Shown: piece by piece, positions 5,089-61,812 of the stretch
How positions within the stretch are numbered: position 1 is the stretch's first letter
How the letters are laid out: each line of letters begins with the position of its first letter
Assembly: GCA_947628145.1 (NCBI GenBank)
Contig: CANQYU010000001.1
Span: 1-61,812 of the forward strand
Length of the DNA: 61,812 bases
Direction of reading: 5' to 3'
From: an uncultured Bacilli bacterium
Lineage (GTDB): Bacteria; Bacillota_I; Bacilli_A; RF39; UBA660
Notes under the pieces: model-generated
Databases searched by the model: none
Told to the model about the DNA's origin: nothing
The model's input: only the letters and a program-made list of their open reading frames with translations
Translations under genes and position numbers: made by a program

Positions 5089-6543
5089 CTAAGATGGTAT
5101 GTATGGGTCGCCTACTGTTCCTTTACCTGAAAATTTTGTAGTAGCTTTCAAATTTATTACTGGACGCACACCAGGCTCAGTAAAGTACACGCCGTCGCTG
5201 CCGAGGCCGCCACCAGGAGTCACATAGAACACGCGAGCATAACCGCTAGTGTAAAAGATATGCGGAGACATGGTCCAGTAGTATTGGTTTGTATATAAGT
5301 AATAACTTGAATTTGCTGAGTCCCAGAAACCACCAGCTAATAGTACCTCATCCGCTGTTATTAACCCTATTGGATATTGTAGTAATTTATTTCCTTTACT
5401 AGCTCCATTCTTGGTAAATAAATCTCTTTCATAGGCAGCGGCGTTTACATCTACACTTGTTTCTTGGTCTGTTGCTGTCGCTGCACTTACTCCACATTTT
5501 AATGTTGGATACTGTGTTTTTCTTGTAGAACCACTCTTTACTACTCTTCCCCACATTGCATAACTTGTTGCCGATGTTCCAAAACCTGTTCCTGAATCAT
5601 AACTTGAATTTACACCAATTACTTTTTGTCTATCATTACAAAAGCCTGCATCTTGGTCTATATATTTGTCATATGTTGCTAAATTCTTTCCATACCAATC
5701 ATTTAAATATGTTGCAATATCACTTGGAGTTGTTCCTTTATGAGCTTCGTCATAAGTACTACTTGCTTTTCCTAAATTATAATATCCTACATATGTATTA
5801 TCATTATATGGAGATGTTTTATATGCTAAGGCTGTTAATTGGGTATTTGTATATGCTGTATTTGTACAACTTGTGCTTCCGCATTGATATATTAATCTTA
5901 ATGTTCCATCGCCATTTATTCGGATTATTCTCCATCTTTTATTAGCAAATTGTACCCAGTTATTATTTGCTTGGCCTCTAAAAAAATAACTTGTTCCATC
6001 ATTATCTGGGGCCGCATATAATGTATTTTCATGATTTGCTGTATCAACTCCAGTTATTTTCATTACTCCGCTTGGGTCTGTTCCATCAAAACCGGTTCCA
6101 CTTTTAGCTGTAGTATAATTAGGAAATAATTTAGCAAGTGTATCTTCCGCAGTTGGCAATTTTTCAAACTCTAAATAACACTTTGTTCCTTTTGTGGTAT
6201 AGGGTGTTATGTTTAATATTCCATTTTCATATGTTAATTCTATTGTATCACTTGGTGTGTCTGTATCTCCTACTTTTTCAGTACAATAGCTTGTATCTTT
6301 TAAGACATATCCATTTCCAGGCATAATATCACTTGGAGCGTCATCTATTGTTATACTTACTATTTCTAAATCCACTAAACTATAATTTATGCTTCCTTTA
6401 GCTAATTCTATACTCTCGGTATTCCTATAATTTGCTCTACTTGTTAAATAATTGATTAATATTACTAATAATAAAGTTATTATTACTCCTATAACTATAT
6501 ATTTAAGTTTATTATTATTTAATTCTAATCTTTCTATTCTCAT
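5089..6543 (-). CDS. Paralog A of a 3-copy secreted/anchored surface-protein family: N-terminal TM anchor, Ig-like module, DUF1566/DUF6273-like C-terminal domain with a hypervariable patch
   Basis: 484 aa with RBS AGGAGAT. Roughly 85-90% nucleotide identity by eye to 19754-20800 over about 1 kb. Conserved blocks: AKSGTGFDGTDPSGVMK, WRIIRINGDGTLRLIYQCG, PIGLITADEVLLAGG, YYWTMSP, GVRPVINL. Confidence 0.85.
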   Translation of the reverse strand: MRIERLELNNNKLKYIVIGVIITLLLVILINYLTSRANYRNTESIELAKGSINYSLVDLEIVSITIDDAPSDIMPGNGYVLKDTSYCTEKVGDTDTPSDTIELTYENGILNITPYTTKGTKCYLEFEKLPTAEDTLAKLFPNYTTAKSGTGFDGTDPSGVMKITGVDTANHENTLYAAPDNDGTSYFFRGQANNNWVQFANKRWRIIRINGDGTLRLIYQCGSTSCTNTAYTNTQLTALAYKTSPYNDNTYVGYYNLGKASSTYDEAHKGTTPSDIATYLNDWYGKNLATYDKYIDQDAGFCNDRQKVIGVNSSYDSGTGFGTSATSYAMWGRVVKSGSTRKTQYPTLKCGVSAATATDQETSVDVNAAAYERDLFTKNGASKGNKLLQYPIGLITADEVLLAGGFWDSANSSYYLYTNQYYWTMSPHIFYTSGYARVFYVTPGGGLGSDGVYFTEPGVRPVINLKATTKFSGKGTVGDPYIPS

Positions 6544-6660: not shown

Positions 6661-6882
6661 ATGGAAAGATTAAGAGATATTAGAGAAGACCATGATTTAA
6701 GACAGGCGGATATTGCTAAATTATTAAATGTAACTCAACAAACATATTCGCGGTATGAAAGTGGCGAAATAAGTATAGATAAAGATAGTTTAATTAAATT
6801 AGCGACTTTTTATAATACATCTGTTGACTATATATTAGGTTTAACGGACGAAAGAAAGCCCTATCCAAAGAGTATTTTATAG
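6661..6882 (+). CDS. XRE-family HTH transcriptional regulator (copy 1)
   Basis: 73 aa. LRQADIAKLLNVTQQTYSRYESG is a Cro/C1-type HTH. RBS GGTGA. Confidence 0.85.
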   Translation: MERLRDIREDHDLRQADIAKLLNVTQQTYSRYESGEISIDKDSLIKLATFYNTSVDYILGLTDERKPYPKSIL

Positions 6883-7001: not shown

Positions 7002-7247
7002 ATGATAGACGAAATTAAATTAGAAAGATTAAAGGGGTTAAGGGAAAATAAAGATTTAAAACAAGAAGATATTGCTAAACTACTTAATATTACTCAAAGT
7101 GCTTATAGTTATTATGAAATTGGGAAAAGACAAATACCTAGTGATGCTTTAATTAAACTAGCAACTTTCTATAATACATCTGTTGATTATATACTAGGTT
7201 TAACGGACGAAAGAAAGCCTTATCCAAAGAGTATTTTAAATAAATAA
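7002..7247 (+). CDS. XRE-family HTH transcriptional regulator (copy 2, tandem duplicate)
   Basis: 81 aa. The C-terminal 30 aa (LIKLATFYNTSVDYILGLTDERKPYPKSIL) are identical to copy 1. RBS GAGGT. Confidence 0.85.
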   Translation: MIDEIKLERLKGLRENKDLKQEDIAKLLNITQSAYSYYEIGKRQIPSDALIKLATFYNTSVDYILGLTDERKPYPKSILNK

Positions 7248-7285: not shown

Positions 7286-8035
7286 TTATGAAAGTTTTAA
7301 TAATTTTTGCCAAGTATATTTTTTGGCAGTTATGACACCATCAACTAAATTTCCTTTGAGACCGACAATTTTTTCTTGATATTCTTTGATTATTTTGGCC
7401 ATTTGAGGGCCATATATTCCATCAATGCCATATTTTCCTAAATCATAACCTAAACTTTGTAAATAGGCTTGTAAGACTTTAACAACAGGATGTTTATTGT
7501 TTTTAGTTTGGGATAAAGTGATAGTTTTATTTAAAGTTTCTTGGTTTGGAAGCTCAGTAACACTTACATTAAGTGCTTGTTGTACCCCTTTTAAAAAAGT
7601 ATGAAAATTATTTTCTGGTTCTTTATTTAAATTAAAAGGATTATCATTCATTAAATAAGGTTTAGGGTCTTGATAGCCTTTATTATAAATAGCAAAATGA
7701 ACATTATAACCAGTCGCATTACCGGTTTTACCCATAGTCGCGATTACTTGCCCTTTTTTTACGGTTTCACCCTTTTTTACTCTAATAGTATTTTTAGCGA
7801 GATGGAAATAACGATGTTCTATTCCATTAGTTTTAATGCTGACCCAGTAACCCCCTCCACTGGAGTCATAGCCAGTAAAATTAACTATTCCATCTTCGAC
7901 GGCGACTATATCGTCAACTTTATTAGGACCGACAAAATCCATACCATTATGGGCTTTACGATTAGAATTACGGGTTTTATAATCGCTAGTTAAATAATGA
8001 ATACCTCCTTTTAAAATATTATTTTTAAGTTCCAT
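7286..8035 (-). CDS. Endolysin-like M23 peptidase with C-terminal peptidoglycan-binding (PG_binding_1) domain
   Basis: HNGMDF (HxxxD), YFHL and GYNVHF motifs, plus LQAYLQSLGYDLGKYGIDGIYGP. I place the start at ATG 8035, which overlaps the holin stop; the ORF track extends to a GTG at 8056. Confidence 0.8.
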   Translation of the reverse strand: MELKNNILKGGIHYLTSDYKTRNSNRKAHNGMDFVGPNKVDDIVAVEDGIVNFTGYDSSGGGYWVSIKTNGIEHRYFHLAKNTIRVKKGETVKKGQVIATMGKTGNATGYNVHFAIYNKGYQDPKPYLMNDNPFNLNKEPENNFHTFLKGVQQALNVSVTELPNQETLNKTITLSQTKNNKHPVVKVLQAYLQSLGYDLGKYGIDGIYGPQMAKIIKEYQEKIVGLKGNLVDGVITAKKYTWQKLLKLS

Positions 8036-8432
8036 CTTGACTGCTATTTTGACCACCCTCTATTTTCTTTAAAGCATCATATAATTTTTGAGGAAGAGGT
8101 AAACCCATATTAGACCAGTTTTTTAATATAGACAAGCCTTCATTCGCGGCAAAGAAATAAATAGCCATATTTCTAATCATTAAACTGTCCCCGAGAATTT
8201 TATCAATTAAACTAGATAAAGCAATTATAATTAAATAGCCAAATTTTTTAATAATATTTTTAAGGCCAATAGTGTTATTTAAAGTTTTATTATAAATCAC
8301 TTTACATAAATTAGTGAATATTTCTAATAAAATAAAAGCAATAAATATAGCTAAAGTTTTATCAAATTTACCAAATAAGAAAGTTAGAATATTTAAAATA
8401 AAACTGGGATTTATATTTAAAATATAAAACAT
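8025..8432 (-). CDS. Holin (toxin-secretion/phage-lysis holin family, phage_holin_4_1 type)
   Basis: 135 aa with multiple TM segments. The conserved ANEGLSILKNWSNMGLPLPQKLYDALKKI block is typical of the TcdE-like holin family. Confidence 0.8.
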   Translation of the reverse strand: MFYILNINPSFILNILTFLFGKFDKTLAIFIAFILLEIFTNLCKVIYNKTLNNTIGLKNIIKKFGYLIIIALSSLIDKILGDSLMIRNMAIYFFAANEGLSILKNWSNMGLPLPQKLYDALKKIEGGQNSSQDGT

Positions 8433-11821: not shown

Positions 11822-12091
11822 TTAAGCGGCTTGTTCAGCGTTTGTACTTTCATTTAAATAATTAACGGTAAATAAAGTAACAATAAAATCTAAAACTTTT
11901 GGATTTGTTACCTCTTCAATATAATATTCGTTATTCTCTTCAGTAGCTTTTAAATATTTATAATCAGTATTAGTCTCTTCTTCAGGGGTAAGACCAACAA
12001 CATATAAATATTTTTCATTATTAAACTCCGCAATATCAAGAATTACATATTCTTTGTTGTTTTCTAATGTGATAACGTCCTCTTTATTCAT
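11822..12091 (-). CDS. DUF1292 family protein
   Basis: 89-aa acidic protein with the typical pattern ITLENNKEYVILDIAEFNNEKYLYVV. Its ATG overlaps the stop of the upstream gene (ATGA). Confidence 0.7.
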   Translation of the reverse strand: MNKEDVITLENNKEYVILDIAEFNNEKYLYVVGLTPEEETNTDYKYLKATEENNEYYIEEVTNPKVLDFIVTLFTVNYLNESTNAEQAA

Positions 12092-15000
12092 CTAACTTGT
12101 CCTCCATTTTCTTTATAGAAATTTGCTACTCGCTCGTCTATATCAGCCATAACTTTACTGTCAGGGTTTTCAGGCATTTGTTGTAATTGGTCATTTATAG
12201 CTTGGATTTGAGCAGGATTAAGTAATTCTTGAAGATTTTCTTGAGCAGGCTCAGAAGCTTCTTCCGAAATTTCATTAACAATTTCTTCGGCTATTTCGGC
12301 ATTTTCAGCAGAATCTAAATCCGGGAAATTTTCGGTAAATTCATCCGCGGCATTATTAAGGTCATGTTTTAAACCTCGAGCTCGAGATTTAATATAAGAA
12401 CCTAAAGTAAGAATTTTTTCTTTTAGGTTACTTTTATTAACATGCTCATTTAGATGTTCTTCTTCATTTTTCGGTTTAAGTAAATTAACAGCAATGGTTG
12501 TAGATGCCCCTAAATTTATGAGATTTAAAGCGGCAATTCCTAAAGCGGAACCAGCTTTAGTGGCAACAGCACCAGCATTAATTACCGCGCCACTGCCATT
12601 GAGCCATAAACCATTAACAAAGGAAATATTACTAACACTAGCAATTAGAGAACTTAAAGAATTAAAGAAACCAGCGGAGGCAGGAAAAGCAACGGCATTA
12701 CAAGAATTAGCAAAAACTAATATTTCAGGTAAGGTAGCTAAAGATAAAGTAGCCATCGTCGCACATATGCCTAAACCGATAATTAATTTTCGATTCTTTT
12801 TAAGGAATTCTTTTCCTTTAGTATATAATTTTCTAACTGTTACTTTTTGTTTTCTAATTTTAGGAGTACTGGTAAGAGCTCTTTCAAAAGCATTAGCATA
12901 AATAGCTTTAGCTTTTCTAAAGTTTTCTTCGTCCTCTTTAGCAACAGTATAACCATCTACATCGCATAAATCTTTAGCTGTACGAGCCTTTTTAAGATAT
13001 TTTTGCATATCTAATAAAGCGTTTAGAGTTTTTTCAGCTTTGGCTTTTTCTTCTTCGGATTTACCATCCATATTTTGACGTATTTCATTAATAGCATCTT
13101 CAACTTCGGCTAAAGCATCTTTATTTATTTTAGAATCTGTTTCTTGGTCAACTTGATTAAAATCATTAGTAACCCCAATTATAGGTTTTTCTTCTTTATT
13201 TAAGTTTTCTTTAATTTCGCGATAATTAGCAAAAGCTTTACGATAATTTTCTTCGTCATTTTCGGCGACTAATGTTCCAGAAATATGACGTAAATCGGGA
13301 CTAGTTTGAGCATTTACTAAATATTTTTTAATTTCATTTAGAACATTAATTAATTCTTTTATTTTCGCTTGAGTTTCAGGACTAGCTGTTTTTAAACTTT
13401 CTTCATGATTACTTATTTCCCCATCAATTTTAGCAATAAAATCAGCATTAATTTGCGGATTATTTATATCTTCATTAGAACTATTATCAAGGTTAGGCTC
13501 TTCGCTATGTTCAATTTGAGGTTCGGTAACCTCAGGTATTTCTATAACAACTGGTTCTGGTTCTTCTTTTAAAGTTTCGCCAGCAAAATATTTAGTTTTA
13601 CTTGCTAATTCTTTTAATAAAGGAATATCTTCAAAATTAGGCGCATAACCAATAGAGCCAACTTTTAGATAATTAGAACTTGGACGACTTAATATTTTTA
13701 TAATTTCAATTATGCGGTTGCACTCATAAACATCTTCAGGAAGAACAGCCCATTGTTTTTCGCCAATTTTAGTAGTTTCTTTCATATCAACATTGAAACC
13801 ACGATGTTCGTCATCACTTACTCTTTTAGCAATTTCGTCAATATAATTTTCTAGATTATTAATTATTTTTTGATTTTCTTCAAAAGCTTTGAGATTAGGA
13901 TTATGTTCATTAAATAAATTAGTATTATTTAATAATTCTTTTAATTCTCTAACATCTTCACTAGAAGCTTTGGCAATTCCCCATACATCAGTTAAAGCAT
14001 ATTTACTATTATTAGCTTTATTTAAAATTCTTAAAATAGATATTAAATTATTATATTCGGCAAGATTAGAAGCTGTAACATACATACCATTAGCTACTTT
14101 CTTAGAGCCTTTAGTTTGACGACGACTTTCTAATTCTCTTAATTTAGCTGTAATAGCGTTAATTATATCCGCATTTGGTAATTCTGGTTTTGGTTCTTCT
14201 TTTTTAGGAAGAGGTTTTAATCTTTTAAATATTTCCGTATTATTTAAAATTTCGGCGACTTTTTCTTTTTGAATTTCATTTACAAATATTAAGTCATTAA
14301 CACATATTAAATCTTCGTCTTTAACATTATTTATAATTTGTTTTAAAACATATAAATTATCATATTCTTCTTTAGCGCTTTTTAATATACTTTTACCATC
14401 AATGCCAAAAGCAATTTCCGTGCCAGAGCGAGTATTCCGATAAGAGGTTAAGATAAAATCCATTTGCTCATCAATTACCGCATTTATTTTACTATTAACA
14501 GTATTTTTGATAGCCACAATTTGGTCTAAAATTATTTTTTTATGTTCTAATAAGGTGGCTCTTTGACTCATTAATTCTTCAAGTTTTCTTTGGCTTTCTA
14601 AAGCATTAGCAATTAAAGATGTATTTTGAATATCTTTATTTATTTTTTCATAATTGCTATTAATAGTATTAAGGCTTCCAACTAAAGCATTAAAACGAGC
14701 AATTTCTCCACTAGTTGCTTGGGCTAAGTCATAACTTTTTGAATCATAATATTCGTTATTTTCTTCGCGAACCTCATTTTTAAGTTCTTCGTATACCTCA
14801 GTTATATAATCAATATTTTCATTTATAATAACATTATTTTTTTGTTCGTAATATTCATAAGCGCGAACATCAAATTCTTTTGTCCGTCCTTTTTTTACAT
14901 AAACATTAGTATTGCCAACTCTTTCTAATTCACTAGGATTTAAATTGGCTGCTTCTTTAATAATTTCTAATAATACTGTTTTAATTAAATCATAATTCAT
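12088..15000 (-). CDS. Large coiled-coil protein with internal repeats and a C-proximal hydrophobic/Gly-rich membrane region; function unknown
   Basis: Start set at ATG 15000 (RBS AAAGAGGGA). About 970 aa with no family recognised. Repeated modules, e.g. ..LINVLNEIKKYLVNAQTSPDLRHISGTLVAENDEENYRKAF.. versus ..LNALLDMQKYLKKARTAKDLCDVDGYTVAKEDEENFRKAK.. Confidence 0.75.
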   Translation of the reverse strand: MNYDLIKTVLLEIIKEAANLNPSELERVGNTNVYVKKGRTKEFDVRAYEYYEQKNNVIINENIDYITEVYEELKNEVREENNEYYDSKSYDLAQATSGEIARFNALVGSLNTINSNYEKINKDIQNTSLIANALESQRKLEELMSQRATLLEHKKIILDQIVAIKNTVNSKINAVIDEQMDFILTSYRNTRSGTEIAFGIDGKSILKSAKEEYDNLYVLKQIINNVKDEDLICVNDLIFVNEIQKEKVAEILNNTEIFKRLKPLPKKEEPKPELPNADIINAITAKLRELESRRQTKGSKKVANGMYVTASNLAEYNNLISILRILNKANNSKYALTDVWGIAKASSEDVRELKELLNNTNLFNEHNPNLKAFEENQKIINNLENYIDEIAKRVSDDEHRGFNVDMKETTKIGEKQWAVLPEDVYECNRIIEIIKILSRPSSNYLKVGSIGYAPNFEDIPLLKELASKTKYFAGETLKEEPEPVVIEIPEVTEPQIEHSEEPNLDNSSNEDINNPQINADFIAKIDGEISNHEESLKTASPETQAKIKELINVLNEIKKYLVNAQTSPDLRHISGTLVAENDEENYRKAFANYREIKENLNKEEKPIIGVTNDFNQVDQETDSKINKDALAEVEDAINEIRQNMDGKSEEEKAKAEKTLNALLDMQKYLKKARTAKDLCDVDGYTVAKEDEENFRKAKAIYANAFERALTSTPKIRKQKVTVRKLYTKGKEFLKKNRKLIIGLGICATMATLSLATLPEILVFANSCNAVAFPASAGFFNSLSSLIASVSNISFVNGLWLNGSGAVINAGAVATKAGSALGIAALNLINLGASTTIAVNLLKPKNEEEHLNEHVNKSNLKEKILTLGSYIKSRARGLKHDLNNAADEFTENFPDLDSAENAEIAEEIVNEISEEASEPAQENLQELLNPAQIQAINDQLQQMPENPDSKVMADIDERVANFYKENGGQVR

Positions 15001-15152
15001 ATGAGTTCCCTCTTTCACACCAAAAAATATAAATCTGTTAGTATTATAGCATAAAAATATTTGTTTTACAATTAATATTAGAAGTTTTACAAATTGGCTA
15101 CTAAAATTCGCGAAAGTATGCTATTATTAATATAATGAAAGTGGGTTATAAA

Positions 15153-19753: not shown

Positions 19754-21688
19754 TTAAGTTGCTACAACAAATGGAGTGTCAACAGAACCATTTCCTCCTG
19801 AGAAAGTTATATCTGCACGTAAATTTATTACTGGACGCACACCAAGAGTAGCGGTGCCCACAACGTTGTAGCTGAGGTTGCCATCACTATTCACATCGAA
19901 TACGTAAGCACTACCATTAGCGAGCAAGGCATACGGAGACATTACCCAATAATCTTGGTGTGTATATAAGTAATAACTTGAATTACCAGTGCCCAAGAAT
20001 CCACCAGCTAATAATACCTCATCCGCCGTTATTAAGCCTATTGGATGTTCTAACAATTTATTCCCTTTACTAGCTCCTGCTTTAGTAAATAAATCTCTTT
20101 TATAAGCAGCGTTGTTTACATCTACACTTGTTTCTTGTTCTGTTGCTGTCGTTGCACTTACTCCACATTTTAATGTTGGGTATTGTGTTTGTCTTTTAGA
20201 ATTACTCTTTTCTACTCTTCCCCATGCTGCATAACTTGTTGCTGATGTTCCAAAACCTGTTCCATCGTAACTTGAATTTACACCTGTTACCTTTTGTCTA
20301 TCATTGCAAAATCCGGCATCTTGGTCTATGTAGTTGTCATATGTTGCTAGCAAATTATCTCTGTACCAATCATTTAAATAACTTGCTATTGTACTTGGAG
20401 TTGTTCCTTGATGGGCTTCGTCATAAGTACTACTTGTTTTCCCAAAATTGTAATATCCTACGTAGGTATTATCAGTATACGGAGAAGATTTATATTCTTT
20501 TGTTGTTAATTGGGTATTTGTATTTGTTGTATCTTTACAACCTATATTTCCACATTGATATATTAATCTAAGTGTTCCATCTCCATTTATTCTAATTATT
20601 CTCCATCTCTTATTAGCAAACTCTACCCAATTATTATTTGCTTGCCCTCTAAAGAAATAACTTGTTCCATCATTATCGGGAGCTTCATATAAAATATTTT
20701 CGTGATTTTCTGTATCTACTCCAGTCACTTTCATTACGCCACTTGGGTCTGTTCCATCAAATCCTGTTCCACTTTTAGCCGTAGTAAAACTTTCTTCTCC
20801 GCCTTTAGTTTCATTTAACTTAGCAAGCATACCTTCTGGAGTTGGTTTATAGAAATATAATACACAACTAGTTCCACTTTGAGTTAAGTTTGATACTAAT
20901 ACTCCATGGTTTCCATTATCCCATATTGGAGTTGCTCCATTTGTACACATACTTTTTTCTGTATTTAAAATATATCCATCTTCTTTACTTGGTATCTCGT
21001 TTTGTTGTTTATATTTCCCATTTTCTTGTTCTACGTTTATTGCTAATATATTTATATCTGGTTCAGCATCGCTTTCCCCTATTGTTACCTCTCCACTAAA
21101 CACTCCATTATTATCATAACTTTGGTCTTCACTTTCGTTTGGATATTCTATTATGACATAATAACTTACTTTCTCTCCCGTTGGACTCGCATTTATAAAT
21201 TCGTCTTGCACTAATATTTCTTGATTACTTGTTATTGTTCCCTCTCCTACTGGGGAACCTAATTTATCGATGTTACTTATTTTACATTCTTCATAGACCA
21301 TTTGTCCACCGGCTACATTTTGACTTTTTCTATTACAACTTGATGTTACATCTTGTAACTCTGTTACTTTATATACGGTATATTTTAATTTTGTTTTTAA
21401 AGTATTAGTTATTTCTTTATATATTACATTATAGGAAACTAAAATATTATCTCCGGTTGCTTTTACATCTATTCTTGATACATCTTTATGGCCAGGAAGC
21501 ATATCTTTTGCATTAAAATTTAATCTTCCATATATTTCTATGGTTGCTCCATTTATATTCGCGGTTGTTACTTTAGTTTTGGCTCCATCTCCTTGAAACA
21601 ATGTTTTTCCTACAAAAAATGCTAAACTTACCCCTATTCCTAATATTAATACACTTAGTAATACTATTATTCTTTTATTTTTTGTCAT
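19754..21688 (-). CDS. Paralog B of the surface-protein family: TasA/camelysin-like N-terminal module, Ig-like module, DUF1566/DUF6273-like C-terminal domain with a hypervariable patch
   Basis: 644 aa. The N-terminus MTKNKRIIVLLSVLILGIGVSLAFFVGKT...MLPGHKDVSRIDVKATG resembles a SipW-type signal plus TasA/M73 fold. The C-terminal ~330 aa are paralogous to 5089-6543 and 60406-61812. Confidence 0.85.
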   Translation of the reverse strand: MTKNKRIIVLLSVLILGIGVSLAFFVGKTLFQGDGAKTKVTTANINGATIEIYGRLNFNAKDMLPGHKDVSRIDVKATGDNILVSYNVIYKEITNTLKTKLKYTVYKVTELQDVTSSCNRKSQNVAGGQMVYEECKISNIDKLGSPVGEGTITSNQEILVQDEFINASPTGEKVSYYVIIEYPNESEDQSYDNNGVFSGEVTIGESDAEPDINILAINVEQENGKYKQQNEIPSKEDGYILNTEKSMCTNGATPIWDNGNHGVLVSNLTQSGTSCVLYFYKPTPEGMLAKLNETKGGEESFTTAKSGTGFDGTDPSGVMKVTGVDTENHENILYEAPDNDGTSYFFRGQANNNWVEFANKRWRIIRINGDGTLRLIYQCGNIGCKDTTNTNTQLTTKEYKSSPYTDNTYVGYYNFGKTSSTYDEAHQGTTPSTIASYLNDWYRDNLLATYDNYIDQDAGFCNDRQKVTGVNSSYDGTGFGTSATSYAAWGRVEKSNSKRQTQYPTLKCGVSATTATEQETSVDVNNAAYKRDLFTKAGASKGNKLLEHPIGLITADEVLLAGGFLGTGNSSYYLYTHQDYWVMSPYALLANGSAYVFDVNSDGNLSYNVVGTATLGVRPVINLRADITFSGGNGSVDTPFVVAT

Positions 21689-58060: not shown

Positions 58061-58651
58061 TTATGGTTTAAGCTCTTCTTCTTTTAAAGGCTCATTGCAT
58101 TTATTATTTAATTGTGATATATTATTTATAGATGTGGAAATATTCTGTTTGCTTTTCGTTTGGGACGTATGGTGAAAGGTTAAATTTTGATTTAAAGCAT
58201 GAACCGAAGCAGATGATATTTTCCACATTGTTTTTATAATTAAGTATTTACTTTTGATAGGTACAACCTCAACGATATATGTAAAATGATGGTTGTATTT
58301 TTTTATGTATCTAATAGTTACATTACCTTTTTGATTATTTCCTTTTATAATTTTAGTAGGTTTTAATATGATTTCTGGTATATTAATTAAATTAAAAATA
58401 GTTAAGGCTATTTGGTCTTTTTTAATTTTATTTTGAAAATTGCTATGATTATTATACATATGCCTTATATCATTATCAACTAAGATATGAACTCTATTTT
58501 CAACACTAAAGCCAATTAATTTTTCAATTTGTTTAGCTACTTTGGGAGCTATTTTTCCTAAATATAGTTTATTATGGGAATTTTTACTATTTAAAGCTCG
58601 ATATATTGTTTTTTCTAATTCTTTTATTTTATTCTTTTCTTCTCTTTCCAT
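58061..58651 (-). CDS. Hypothetical; possible PBECR-type (Barnase/EndoU/ColicinE5-D/RelE-like) nuclease domain protein
   Basis: The layout LGKIAPKVAKQIEKLIG..VHILVDNDIRHMYNNH ... IPEIILKPTKII...YIVEVV...IIKTMWKIS resembles my recollection of small PBECR toxins (..L.D.RI.HI..H.., ..PD.I.., ..T.W). By recall only. Confidence 0.35.
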   Translation of the reverse strand: MEREEKNKIKELEKTIYRALNSKNSHNKLYLGKIAPKVAKQIEKLIGFSVENRVHILVDNDIRHMYNNHSNFQNKIKKDQIALTIFNLINIPEIILKPTKIIKGNNQKGNVTIRYIKKYNHHFTYIVEVVPIKSKYLIIKTMWKISSASVHALNQNLTFHHTSQTKSKQNISTSINNISQLNNKCNEPLKEEELKP

Positions 58652-60405: not shown

Positions 60406-61812
60406 TTATGATGGTATATATGGGTCGTCTACTGTTCCACTACCTGAAAAATTTGTAGTAGCTTTCAGATTTATTACTGGACGCACACCATAAGGGCTAC
60501 TCACGTTGCCGTTGCCGGTATTGAGGTCACCACTAGTGTTTACAATGAACATGTAAGCATAGCTACTACTAAAGTGAGATGGGGTCATAGTCCAATAGTA
60601 CTTATTTGTATATAAATAATAGTTTAAGTTTGCTTCTCCAGCTTTCCCTCCGGCCATGGCTACTTCATCCGCAGTAATTAATCCTACTGGATATTGTAGC
60701 ATTCCATTTCCTTCCTCTGTTTCGTCACTCGTTGTGAATAAATCTCTTTGTAATGCAAACTGATTTACTATTTTTGTTTTTAGGTCTACTCCACATCTTA
60801 AATCTGGTGTTTGAGTTTTCAAATAGCTCGAAGCATCAGAAAATCTATCAACTGCGGCATAACTTGTTGCACTATTATAACTGCTACCATATCCAGTATT
60901 ATAGTCACTACTTCTGTATACTTGAGCAATTTGCCTATCATTACAAAAGCCAGTATTTCCACTTAAATATTTTCTATATTCTTCGGGTATTCCTTTTTCT
61001 TTGCCTTCAAAGCTTCCCGCTCCTTCATACCAATCGTTTATATATTTGGCTATGTCACTCGGATTTGTTTTTAAACTTTTATGAGCAACAGCATAATCAC
61101 TTGCACTTGGTGTTCCAAAATAATATCCTACATATGTATTATCATTATTAGGATTACTTTTGTATGCTACCCCTGTGTCTCCATTTATTTGGGTATTATT
61201 TCCTGTTGTGTCAGTACAATTTGCACTACCACATTGGTATATTAAGCGAAGTGTTCCATCTCCATTTATTCGGATTATCCTCCATCTTTTATTGGCAAAT
61301 TGTACCCAGTTATCTTGAACATTTCCTCGGAATACATAACTTGTTCCATAGTTATCTTCGGTTGTATATAATTTTCCTGTTGAACTTGATGTATCTCTTT
61401 CGCTTATTGTTGGCATAGGAAGAATTGTATAGTTGTTTCCACCCTTAGCTTCCTGTAATTTTGCAAGCATATTTTCCGCGGTTGGCATTTTCTCAAAATA
61501 TAATACACATCCTGTTCCACTTTGGGTTAAATTATCTACATAAAATCTCTTATTAATATAATCCCATACTGGTTTAGCTTCATTAGAACACATGCTTTGT
61601 TCATTTAATGACCATTTACCTTCTGTTGGCATTTTATCTGCTTCTTCATATTCTCCTGTTTCTTCGTTTTGTATATACATTGCCATTATTTCTATATCTG
61701 GTTTGGCATCACTTGCTTCGACTGTTACTACTCCGTCAAATCCTAATCCTATATCTTCATTTTGACTTGTCTCTTTATTTGGATATTCTAATATGACATA
61801 ATAATATACTGT
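60406..61812 (-). CDS. Paralog C of the surface-protein family (5' end lies beyond the window edge; partial)
   Basis: The frame stays open upstream of the first Met to position 61812 (..YYYVILEYPNKETSQNEDIGLGFDGVVTVEASDAKPDIEIMAMYIQ..). That stretch is collinear with paralog B residues ..YYVIIEYPNESEDQ..DINILAI.. The C-terminal 20 aa are nearly identical to paralog A. Confidence 0.85.
   Translation of the reverse strand, partial: TVYYYVILEYPNKETSQNEDIGLGFDGVVTVEASDAKPDIEIMAMYIQNEETGEYEEADKMPTEGKWSLNEQSMCSNEAKPVWDYINKRFYVDNLTQSGTGCVLYFEKMPTAENMLAKLQEAKGGNNYTILPMPTISERDTSSSTGKLYTTEDNYGTSYVFRGNVQDNWVQFANKRWRIIRINGDGTLRLIYQCGSANCTDTTGNNTQINGDTGVAYKSNPNNDNTYVGYYFGTPSASDYAVAHKSLKTNPSDIAKYINDWYEGAGSFEGKEKGIPEEYRKYLSGNTGFCNDRQIAQVYRSSDYNTGYGSSYNSATSYAAVDRFSDASSYLKTQTPDLRCGVDLKTKIVNQFALQRDLFTTSDETEEGNGMLQYPVGLITADEVAMAGGKAGEANLNYYLYTNKYYWTMTPSHFSSSYAYMFIVNTSGDLNTGNGNVSSPYGVRPVINLKATTNFSGSGTVDDPYIPS

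Follow-up and report, generated by a model that had tools for sequence, protein, structure and literature searches.

Probable diversity-generating-retroelement variable regions in a membrane-anchored protein family of an uncultured Bacilli bacterium

The 61,812-nt window analyzed here (assembly GCA_947628145.1, contig CANQYU010000001.1, in its entire length), from the metagenome-assembled genome (MAG) of an uncultured, spore-forming, low-G+C (~28% G+C) member of the Bacilli, encodes three paralogous proteins, denoted A, B and C. Close to the 3′ end of the paralog A gene lies a hypervariable patch (positions 5173-5262, minus strand) that had been predicted, from the letters alone, to resemble the variable region (VR) of a diversity-generating retroelement (DGR). 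The patch is in all probability the VR of a DGR target gene, with paralogs B and C carrying sister VRs. Its assignment as a DGR-type VR is supported by each of the DGR tests that could be run and, in particular, by the predicted fold of the protein, by template repeats (TRs) in metagenomes of related bacteria, and by a bias of the differences toward template adenines. The VRs appear to be real, possibly orphaned, variable regions of an apparently unusual DGR with multiple dispersed templates.

The hypervariable patch and the protein that carries it

The relevant features of the window, all on the minus strand, are as follows:

5089..6543: open reading frame (ORF) of paralog A, 484 aa; N-terminal transmembrane helix, beta-sandwich, and DUF6273/C-lectin-like domain ending in the candidate VR
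5152..5172: 3′ boundary of VR A, the 21-mer GGTGTGCGTCCAGTAATAAAT, with three exact copies in the window
5173..5262: candidate VR of paralog A; 30 codons, 14% A, 54% G+C
5263..5271: 5′ boundary of VR A, ATGTCTCCG; TR-VR homology starts here at (T)GTCTCCG, and TR units carry GTCTCCG at this place
19754..21688: ORF of paralog B, 644 aa; N-terminal part longer
19823..19843: 3′ boundary of VR B, exact copy of the 21-mer
19844..19933: candidate VR of paralog B; 21% A, 48% G+C
60406..61686: ORF of paralog C, 426 aa; convergent with spoIVA
60469..60489: 3′ boundary of VR C, exact copy of the 21-mer
60490..60579: VR-equivalent of paralog C, with a degenerate 5′ boundary (ATGACCCCA)

The composition claimed for the patch in the original prediction was reproduced by computation (G+C 49/90, A 13/90), as was the presence of the rare codons named there (GGC four times, GTG three times, and the others listed). 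The highest G+C content of any 90-nt segment of the window (0.61) falls in the patch, the runner-up being a tRNA. The recount of the alignment of A with B also agrees, with 7 of the 30 patch codons identical, 22 differing non-synonymously and 1 synonymously, and the third base unchanged in 17 of the 23 that differ. Upstream of the patch, by comparison, 196 of 296 codons are identical (Fisher p=6.6e-6), and the synonymous and non-synonymous differences number 48 and 52, against 1 and 22 in the patch (Fisher p=4e-5). Differences at codon positions 1, 2 and 3 amount to 35, 28 and 68 upstream and to 16, 15 and 6 in the patch.

The VR, which ends 84 nt from the stop codon, is sharply bounded by ATGTCTCCG and the 21-mer. 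These boundaries hold likewise in paralog B and in the alleles of relatives, and allelic genes of relatives diverge exactly from the 5′ boundary onward. The 21-mer is indeed common to all three paralogs, with exact copies at 5152-5172, 19823-19843 and 60469-60489 and none elsewhere in the window; shuffled sequence gave no match. The codons ATG-TCT-CCG at the 5′ border of the patch, described as invariant, are so in A and B, and paralog C reads ATG-ACC-CCA. The first 12 nt of the 21-mer equal the 3′ end of the TRs except for one base (GGTGTGCGYCCA, with T in the window and C in the recovered TRs), and its last 9 nt are VR-specific. VR B retains more AAC/AAT codons than VR A; VR C can be aligned with A, B and the TRs of relatives only if one-codon gaps that offset each other are allowed; either it is an older VR or a different TR serves it.

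The AlphaFold2 model of A, built on an alignment of 71 homologues (predicted local distance difference test, pLDDT, 90; predicted TM-score, pTM, 0.82), comprises a transmembrane helix (residues 10-37), a small beta-sandwich and a large domain (~140-484), in which VR residues 428-457 are mostly in beta strands (422-431, 435-441, 447-451; pLDDT >95). A Foldseek search with A retrieved phage proteins containing the DUF6273 domain (E 1e-6 to 4e-4) and the IgA peptidase of Thomasclavelia ramosa (PDB 9qa6, E 5.5e-4), the N-terminal domain of which is annotated as DUF6273 (PMC12402451); there was no direct match to Mtd or TvpA. According to three papers (PMC10743442; PMC11792537; bioRxiv 10.1101/2024.10.15.618418), DUF6273 resembles C-type lectins and is diversified by DGRs, the VR forming the C-terminal end of the domain, its likeness to C-type lectins being taken here from PMC10743442 and the 2024 bioRxiv preprint. 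In the model, the patch sits at the end of the DUF6273-like domain. Of the DUF1566/DUF6273 resemblance originally proposed, the DUF6273 part stands by fold and no DUF1566 match was obtained; the Pfam matches to DUF6273 (PF19789, gathering threshold 23.5 bits) are sub-threshold (A, 17.9; C, 21.2; B, no match) and involve only the last ~60 profile positions, and several homologues carry precomputed PF19789 matches. The domain of the paralogs is a divergent relative of DUF6273 and is not called a member of that family.

With a cut-off of E<=1e-5, A has >5000 homologous proteins, and some MAGs carry several paralogs on a single contig. At 90% identity, A and B are singleton clusters (best foreign match, 63% identical), unlike the RpoB and SpoIVA proteins of the window, which have 86-120 close relatives; the species of the window has no close relatives in the databases as judged from the A and B clusters.

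The boundary 21-mer leads beyond this species. A scan of a genome collection found it, without mismatch, in 23 loci of ~14 other species-level genomes, labeled as uncultured Bacilli, ‘Mycoplasma sp. CAG:776’ and a yak-rumen bacterium, always at the same place in homologous genes; all 23 are VR loci and there is no TR among them. In most loci, the preceding 90-100 nt follow a common scheme, ATGTCTCCG NNT NNC TTT .. GCT NNC GTG TTC NAT GTG, continued by NAT NCG NNT GGC NNC CTC NNC NNC NNC GTG NNC .. GGTGTGCG. Invariant residues are encoded by adenine-free codons (GTG TTC, GTG, GGC, CTC) and variable residues by NNC/NNT, which is the pattern of an AAC/AAT DGR template after randomization of its adenines. 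The scaffold is kept at synonymous sites across ~14 or more species, and selection at the protein level alone does not predict such a scaffold in ~28% G+C genomes. One member of the family, P0109 of Mycoplasma sp. CAG:776 (locus L119, 10001-12190), consists of two modules in tandem. The inner one is lectin-like and terminates in GVRPVINIKK but lacks the G+C-rich scaffold, and the VR that matches TRs is in the C-terminal module only.

Template repeats in relatives and the adenine bias

A metagenome scan with the scaffold GTGTTCNNTGTGNNTNNNNNTGGCNNCCTC returned 91 loci, in which the matches form two classes. The VR class consists of ~55 matches at the ends of long ORFs (200-590 codons) of the same family, which continue GGTGTGCG[C/T]CCAGTAATAAAT. 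The TR class comprises 47 AAC/AAT-rich non-coding units (<=40 in-frame codons upstream; for example, GCTAACGTGTTCAATGTGAATTCGAATGGCAACCTCAACTGGAACAACGTGAATAACACGAAT), which after GGTGTGCGCCCA continue with ATATCCTTTTAAACTT.. and then with a conserved tail of ~170 nt. The homology between TRs and VRs starts at (T)GTCTCCG and ends after GGTGTGCGCCCA. At the 3′ end, VRs read GGTGTGCGYCCA followed by GTAATAAAT and TRs read GGTGTGCGCCCA followed by ATATCCTTTTAAAC, the continuations being ...CCAGTAATAAAT in VRs and ...CCAATATCC in TRs. This asymmetry, as read from the aligned units, looks like that between IMH, the initiation-of-mutagenic-homing element of BPP-1, and IMH*, its TR counterpart. A TR sub-type (L035, L053, L054, L086 and L101; e.g., L101 4890-4945) has AATAAAATAATGATGTCCTGTTAGGCGCTTGACAGGGCAATATCC, an inserted G+C-rich hairpin just 5′ of the conserved tail, in place of the 3′ element GGTGTGCGCCC.

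Differences between TRs and VRs of relatives are adenine-specific, even across samples. The VR of locus L113 mismatches the TR of L045 at 17 of 31 adenines and at 1 of 70 other bases; the respective values are 13/31 and 3/76 for the VR of L071 and the TR of L104, and 14/28 and 4/73 for L096 and L031, which belong to the same assembly.

The TRs that were compared with the window are heterologous, come from other organisms and were recovered without use of the variable positions of the window, so that agreement at adenines amounts to an independent test of the DGR hypothesis. The closest TR type (L081/L041/L093) equals VR A and VR B in length, and its ACT GAN CCT ending is as in A. Against the TR of L081, VR A is mismatched at 18 of 30 adenines and 11 of 77 other bases (p=5e-6), and VR B at 15 of 30 and 16 of 77 (p=0.004); between A and B themselves, 22 of the 30 TR-adenine positions and 15 of 77 positions elsewhere differ (p=4.8e-7). 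The variable positions, predicted to map to template adenines, are thus concentrated there with these heterologous TRs.

An nhmmer model built from 34 TR units and used to search the window at E<=10 matched only at the three VRs (A, 5158-5273, E=1.9e-14; B, 19830-19946, E=2e-15; C, 60476-60590, E=1.5e-12) and only through the VR-homologous part of the model; the window therefore holds three VRs and no TR unit. The original statement that the window lacks a TR agrees with this search and with a repeat search, neither of which found one, no covariance-model search for a divergent tail having been made.

Each TR unit is a structured RNA of ~290 nt in the predicted fold. A leader, GGUUAAUCU, pairs with the tail, AGAUUAAUC, enclosing the TR; directly 3′ of the TR, AUAUCC pairs with GGAUAU, and two more hairpins follow. 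Among 32 distinct units, the 46 predicted pairs are 97.2% paired and 24 of them show compensatory changes; none of 500 shuffles equaled the observed value and slid registers gave at most 9 compensatory pairs. A TATAAT-type box lies upstream of each aligned unit (both boxes of L031 have an extended -10 TG), and the 3′ end of many units is a terminator-like site, a hairpin with a T-run after it. Covariation of this extent indicates that the TR units are under selection as RNAs, and each is probably transcribed as an RNA gene of its own. Rfam contains no family matching the unit.

The units are located in varied chromosomal gaps, such as the trmB-dedA interval and sites adjoining ribosomal-protein operons and two-component systems. 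Tandem arrays of three (L056) and two units (L031, L041, L087, L093, L111, L045, L080) occur, and one assembly (~25x coverage) contains at least 5 TRs and at least 5 VRs. In eleven or twelve of the 47 cases, a yhcG-like gene on the same strand ends close to the start of the unit, which lies at -20 to +15 nt (in one case, +150) relative to that end (L037, L040, L041, L045, L072, L081, L087, L093, L104 and, twice, L111). The yhcG-like gene encodes a PDDEXK nuclease (DUF1016_N + YhcG_C) and holds the place of avd in canonical DGRs. It is truncated at profile position ~126-130 of 157 and sometimes frameshifted; it could be an accessory nuclease gene or a preferred insertion site. A PDB sequence search with its product was uninformative.

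Scans of the IMG/VR viral contigs, for which the scaffold, a 21-mer resembling TRs and two motifs of the tail served as queries, found no TR units; they yielded one small VR-like phage gene (L024) and one further match, L123, which was rejected as a chance coding match. IMG/VR phage contigs do encode ~200-aa proteins that end in a VR-like scaffold (..YYWTMSP..AYVFYVNSGGNLDWYGVNGTFGLRPVITLK):

L024/L116, 10001-10603: phage VR-like gene
L117, 4924-5424: phage VR-like gene
L118, 7793-8383: phage VR-like gene

Neither a TR nor a reverse transcriptase (RT) is present in the 11-18 kb of loci L116-118; these phage targets might use templates of the host or may be remnants. A tblastn search of INPHARED with the C-terminal domain gave no match.

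Proposed mechanism and alternative explanations

We infer that the genome of this bacterium carries its own TR or TRs and RT, with the system acting in trans and recently active. A TR RNA encoded elsewhere in the genome would carry the same ~107-nt scaffold, with AAC/AAT where the protein varies (GTCTCCG .. GCT AAC GTG TTC AAT GTG AAT TCG AAT GGC AAC CTC AAC AAC AAC .. GGTGTGCGYCCA). A DGR-type RT that misreads adenines would copy this RNA, and the cDNA would replace the stretch from ATGTCTCCG to GGTGTGCGTCCA in the target genes. The outcome would be randomization of ~12-15 codons, mostly within beta strands of the C-lectin-like domain with which a surface protein anchored in the membrane ends.

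A more specific proposal, which we hold tentatively and with less than even confidence, is that a dispersed DGR with multiple templates serves all three paralogs, each genome of this gut-Bacilli clade carrying a library of structured TR small RNAs that is unlinked from the RT. Such an arrangement would be reflected in the assembly with at least 5 TRs and in the arrays of 2-3 units, each probably transcribed alone. Given the shared GTCTCCG and GGTGTGCGYCCA ends, templates of differing length and scaffold could rewrite the same or paralogous genes, perhaps including phage-borne ones, and variation would arise from template choice plus adenine mutagenesis. The PDDEXK nuclease gene of yhcG type, found directly ahead of roughly one in four TR units, may belong to the system.

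Replacement of the VR is seen in relatives. In four alleles, each recovered from another sample (L107, L049, L039 and L115), the flanks show 92-100% identity but the VRs are unrelated and of unequal length; the sequences switch exactly at ATGTCTCCG, and flank identity resumes exactly at GTGTGCGCCCAGTAAT. Between these near-identical alleles, the VR appears to be replaced in the manner of a cassette.

Several observations weigh against the proposed mechanism. The first group concerns the machinery. RT, Avd and the TR unit are all lacking from the window; among its ~48 ORFs, there is no RVT_1 or Avd, and neither a YxDD regular expression nor phmmer with a group II RT as the query gave a match, in line with the original statement that the window encodes no RT. 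No RT was detected on either side of any of the 47 TR units in flanks of 1-5 kb, not complete genomes (>=1 kb downstream in 34 units, >=2 kb downstream in 26 and >=1 kb upstream in 35), or beside any of ~80 VR loci of relatives, and no DGR-type RT is present in any of the 133 loci examined (~870 kb). The neighborhoods of P0109, P0044, P0028 and P0026 (~20 kb each) contained neither RVT nor a TR. The canonical arrangement, in which the TR lies <=~1 kb from the RT (PMC8144416), is thus not that of the TR units of relatives. Action of the DGR in trans is consistent with the lack of an RT beside the 47 TR units and ~80 VR loci. Two candidate RT genes were rejected: the sole RT in any locus (L028, 5814-7593, minus strand) belongs to a true group II intron with D1-D4 and D5/6 RNA domains, inserted just downstream of a VR-bearing gene of the family, and a 399-aa gene that directly follows the TR unit of L101/L053 shows neither RT motifs nor a Pfam match.

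The second group of adverse observations concerns the sequences. The fit of paralog C is weak (mismatches to the TR at 13/32 adenines and 15/75 other bases, p=0.03, with 11 gap columns). In A and B, 14-21% of the non-adenine positions also mismatch the heterologous TRs, although residual mismatches of this kind are expected for a heterologous TR. Divergence between A and B at non-adenine positions of the VR (19%) is about that of the flanks (15%), so that A and B have not been recently overwritten from one common TR. The population-level evidence, which comes from relatives only, is conflicting: the four alleles described above differ solely in the VR, whereas P0109, the VR of which matches TR type L041/L093, is identical in 119 collection blocks, and ten CAG:776 variants (98-100% identical) vary elsewhere, with a single VR residue affected. 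The VRs of this family can accordingly stay fixed for long, and several other VR alleles recur unchanged in different assemblies.

Many of these points fit the main alternative, namely that the VRs are orphans (fossils) of past DGR diversification whose RT and/or TRs have since been lost, leaving three frozen alleles under ordinary mutation. We regard this as a serious possibility that is nevertheless unlikely. There are precedents: Treponema denticola isolates that lack RT and TR keep 2-6 leftover targets (PMC4891356), and some phages retain DUF6273 targets without a DGR (bioRxiv 10.1101/2024.10.15.618418). The absence of RT and TR from the window, the equality of flank divergence and non-adenine VR divergence between A and B, the CAG:776 VR that is fixed in >100 samples, and the eroded look of paralog C all agree with it. 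However, VR A remains at 54-61% G+C and 14% A in a ~28% G+C genome, with its scaffold codons intact, which speaks against long neutral decay; the compensatory changes in the TR RNAs of relatives and the near-identical alleles with different VRs imply working machinery in the clade; and, if a genome has several TRs, this could account for the lack of homogenization of A and B.

Two readings that dispense with a retroelement have very little probability. Positive selection of the ordinary kind, acting on a loop that binds a ligand and perhaps accompanied by gene conversion between paralogs, would suit the fast overall evolution of A and B (singletons at 90% identity, against the 86-120 close relatives of RpoB and SpoIVA) and the C-terminal tails of A and C, which are more alike than the rest and hint at mosaic exchange, but leaves unexplained the A-depleted, G+C-rich composition, the synonymous-site conservation of the scaffold across ~14 or more species, and the coincidence of the differences with adenines of independent non-coding repeats (p=5e-7). 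Equally improbable is cassette switching by DNA recombination, with the TR-like units as silent donors for gene conversion as in pilS/pilE or vls: the several donor-like units per genome, some in tandem arrays, the different VR lengths among alleles, the lack of an RT near any unit and the PDDEXK-nuclease (yhcG-like) gene abutting about a quarter of them could be so accounted for, but gene conversion, being faithful, should not leave 50-60% of donor adenines mismatched when only 1-6% of the other positions are, and the TATAAT boxes, terminator-like hairpins and covarying 170-nt tail point to units selected as RNAs.

Relation to known systems and genomic setting

A VR in a DUF6273 protein, with remote targets, is of a known kind. 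The organization of the TRs in relatives, as free-standing, multicopy structured small-RNA genes away from an RT, as far as flanks of 1-5 kb show, exceeds the described DGR architecture. In the archetypal DGR, that of BPP-1 (Mtd/Brt/Avd), the TR RNA is co-transcribed with avd and brt. The units described here share with BPP-1 an AAC-rich TR, adenine-specific changes, A-free invariant scaffold codons, a G+C-rich 3′ element common to TR and VR that is followed by VR-specific sequence (IMH versus IMH*), and structured RNA 3′ of the TR, in a position comparable to that of the BPP-1 spacer. They differ in that each TR unit has its own promoter-like and terminator-like sites and a leader-tail helix that encloses the TR.

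The closest chromosomal parallel is the DGR of T. denticola (TvpA and up to six remote targets), with dispersed paralogous surface proteins and C-terminal VRs of the C-lectin type; there, too, targets are far from the RT, and strains keep targets but lack RT and TR (PMC4891356). That system, however, relies on a single TR immediately adjacent to the RT and an accessory gene, and diversifies lipoproteins of the FGE-sulfatase type, whereas the proteins described here have a DUF6273-like domain and an N-terminal membrane anchor and the TRs of relatives are many and free-standing, with no RT alongside. The phage DUF6273 DGRs (those of the tentaclins of phages nd4/nd12, the Faecalibacterium prophages Lelie, CP11, Roos and Pioen, and Toutatisvirus) share the domain and the position of the VR at its C-terminal end, and two targets per element occur, one of them up to 17 kb off (PMC10743442; PMC11792537; bioRxiv 10.1101/2024.10.15.618418). 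These, however, are compact avd-TR-RT cassettes of phage genomes that diversify receptor-binding or decoration proteins; in the present case, the targets are chromosomal, among rpoBC, ileS, dnaB and spoIVA, no cassette was found, and IMG/VR lacks the TR units. Neisseria pilS/pilE and Borrelia vls resemble the present arrangement in having several non-expressed donors per genome, some of them arrayed, and in replacing a defined segment of a surface gene, but they operate by faithful DNA recombination, unlike the donor-adenine-specific differences and structured donor RNAs seen here.

In the largest survey of DGRs, a repeat had to lie <=1 kb from the RT (PMC8144416), a requirement that would have excluded TR units of the present type. 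A literature search revealed no paper linking DGRs with Mollicutes or RF39. On multiple or unlinked TRs, it returned only a remark on T. denticola from metagenomics and a preprint of 2026; the large survey of Wu et al. does not discuss multiple TRs.

If the dispersed architecture holds, there is a clade with free-standing TR genes that are invisible to RT-anchored surveys, and the use of DGRs in uncultured gut Bacilli may be underestimated. A DGR RT would then be able to recognize template RNA wholly in trans via the conserved leader-tail structure, with a bearing on how TR RNA is recognized and primed, and a natural multi-template, multi-target design would be relevant to the engineering of DGRs for directed evolution. 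The membrane-anchored lectin-like family, with its >5000 homologues and many members per genome, would present a variable face towards the host, phages or neighboring cells. If the VRs of the window are only orphans, they would be an ordinary example of DGR remnants.

The paralogs are interspersed with housekeeping genes, including rpoB/rpoC, ileS with a T-box leader, dnaB, priA and spoIVA. A and C, 53% identical overall as proteins, have 21 of 28 codons identical downstream of the VR (from the 21-mer onward), against 9 of 28 for B; this similarity suggests that 3′ ends (5089-5151 versus 60406-60468) may have been exchanged among the paralogs in a mosaic fashion. When an orthologue of paralog C was sought in related strains via SpoIVA (L125-L131, SpoIVA protein P0167), its position was taken by only a 103-aa gene, convergent with spoIVA, that resembles the N-terminal beta-sandwich domain of the family alone; 5 of the 7 contigs shown stop 60-160 nt from spoIVA, inside the 3′ end of this gene. 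The 976-aa ORF located between ileS and the phosphoglucomutase gene (12088-15018, minus strand) matches no Pfam family at E<=0.01.

Divergent from paralog A are two tandem genes for XRE-type helix-turn-helix (HTH) proteins of 73 and 81 aa (6661-6882 and 7002-7247, plus strand), which account for a 150-nt direct repeat, D4 (80% identical). Members of the family in L010, L124, L132 and L133 likewise have a divergent HTH_3/HTH_19 gene on their upstream side, suggesting that each paralog has a dedicated HTH regulator. The locus of paralog A adjoins genes for a phage holin (PF05105) and an M23 peptidase with a PG-binding domain (7286-8432, minus strand); together with an MvaI/BcnI restriction endonuclease at the start of the contig (127-867, minus strand) and a PBECR3 nuclease beside spoIVA (58061-58651, minus strand), these form a set of genes with a mobile-element flavor among the housekeeping ones.

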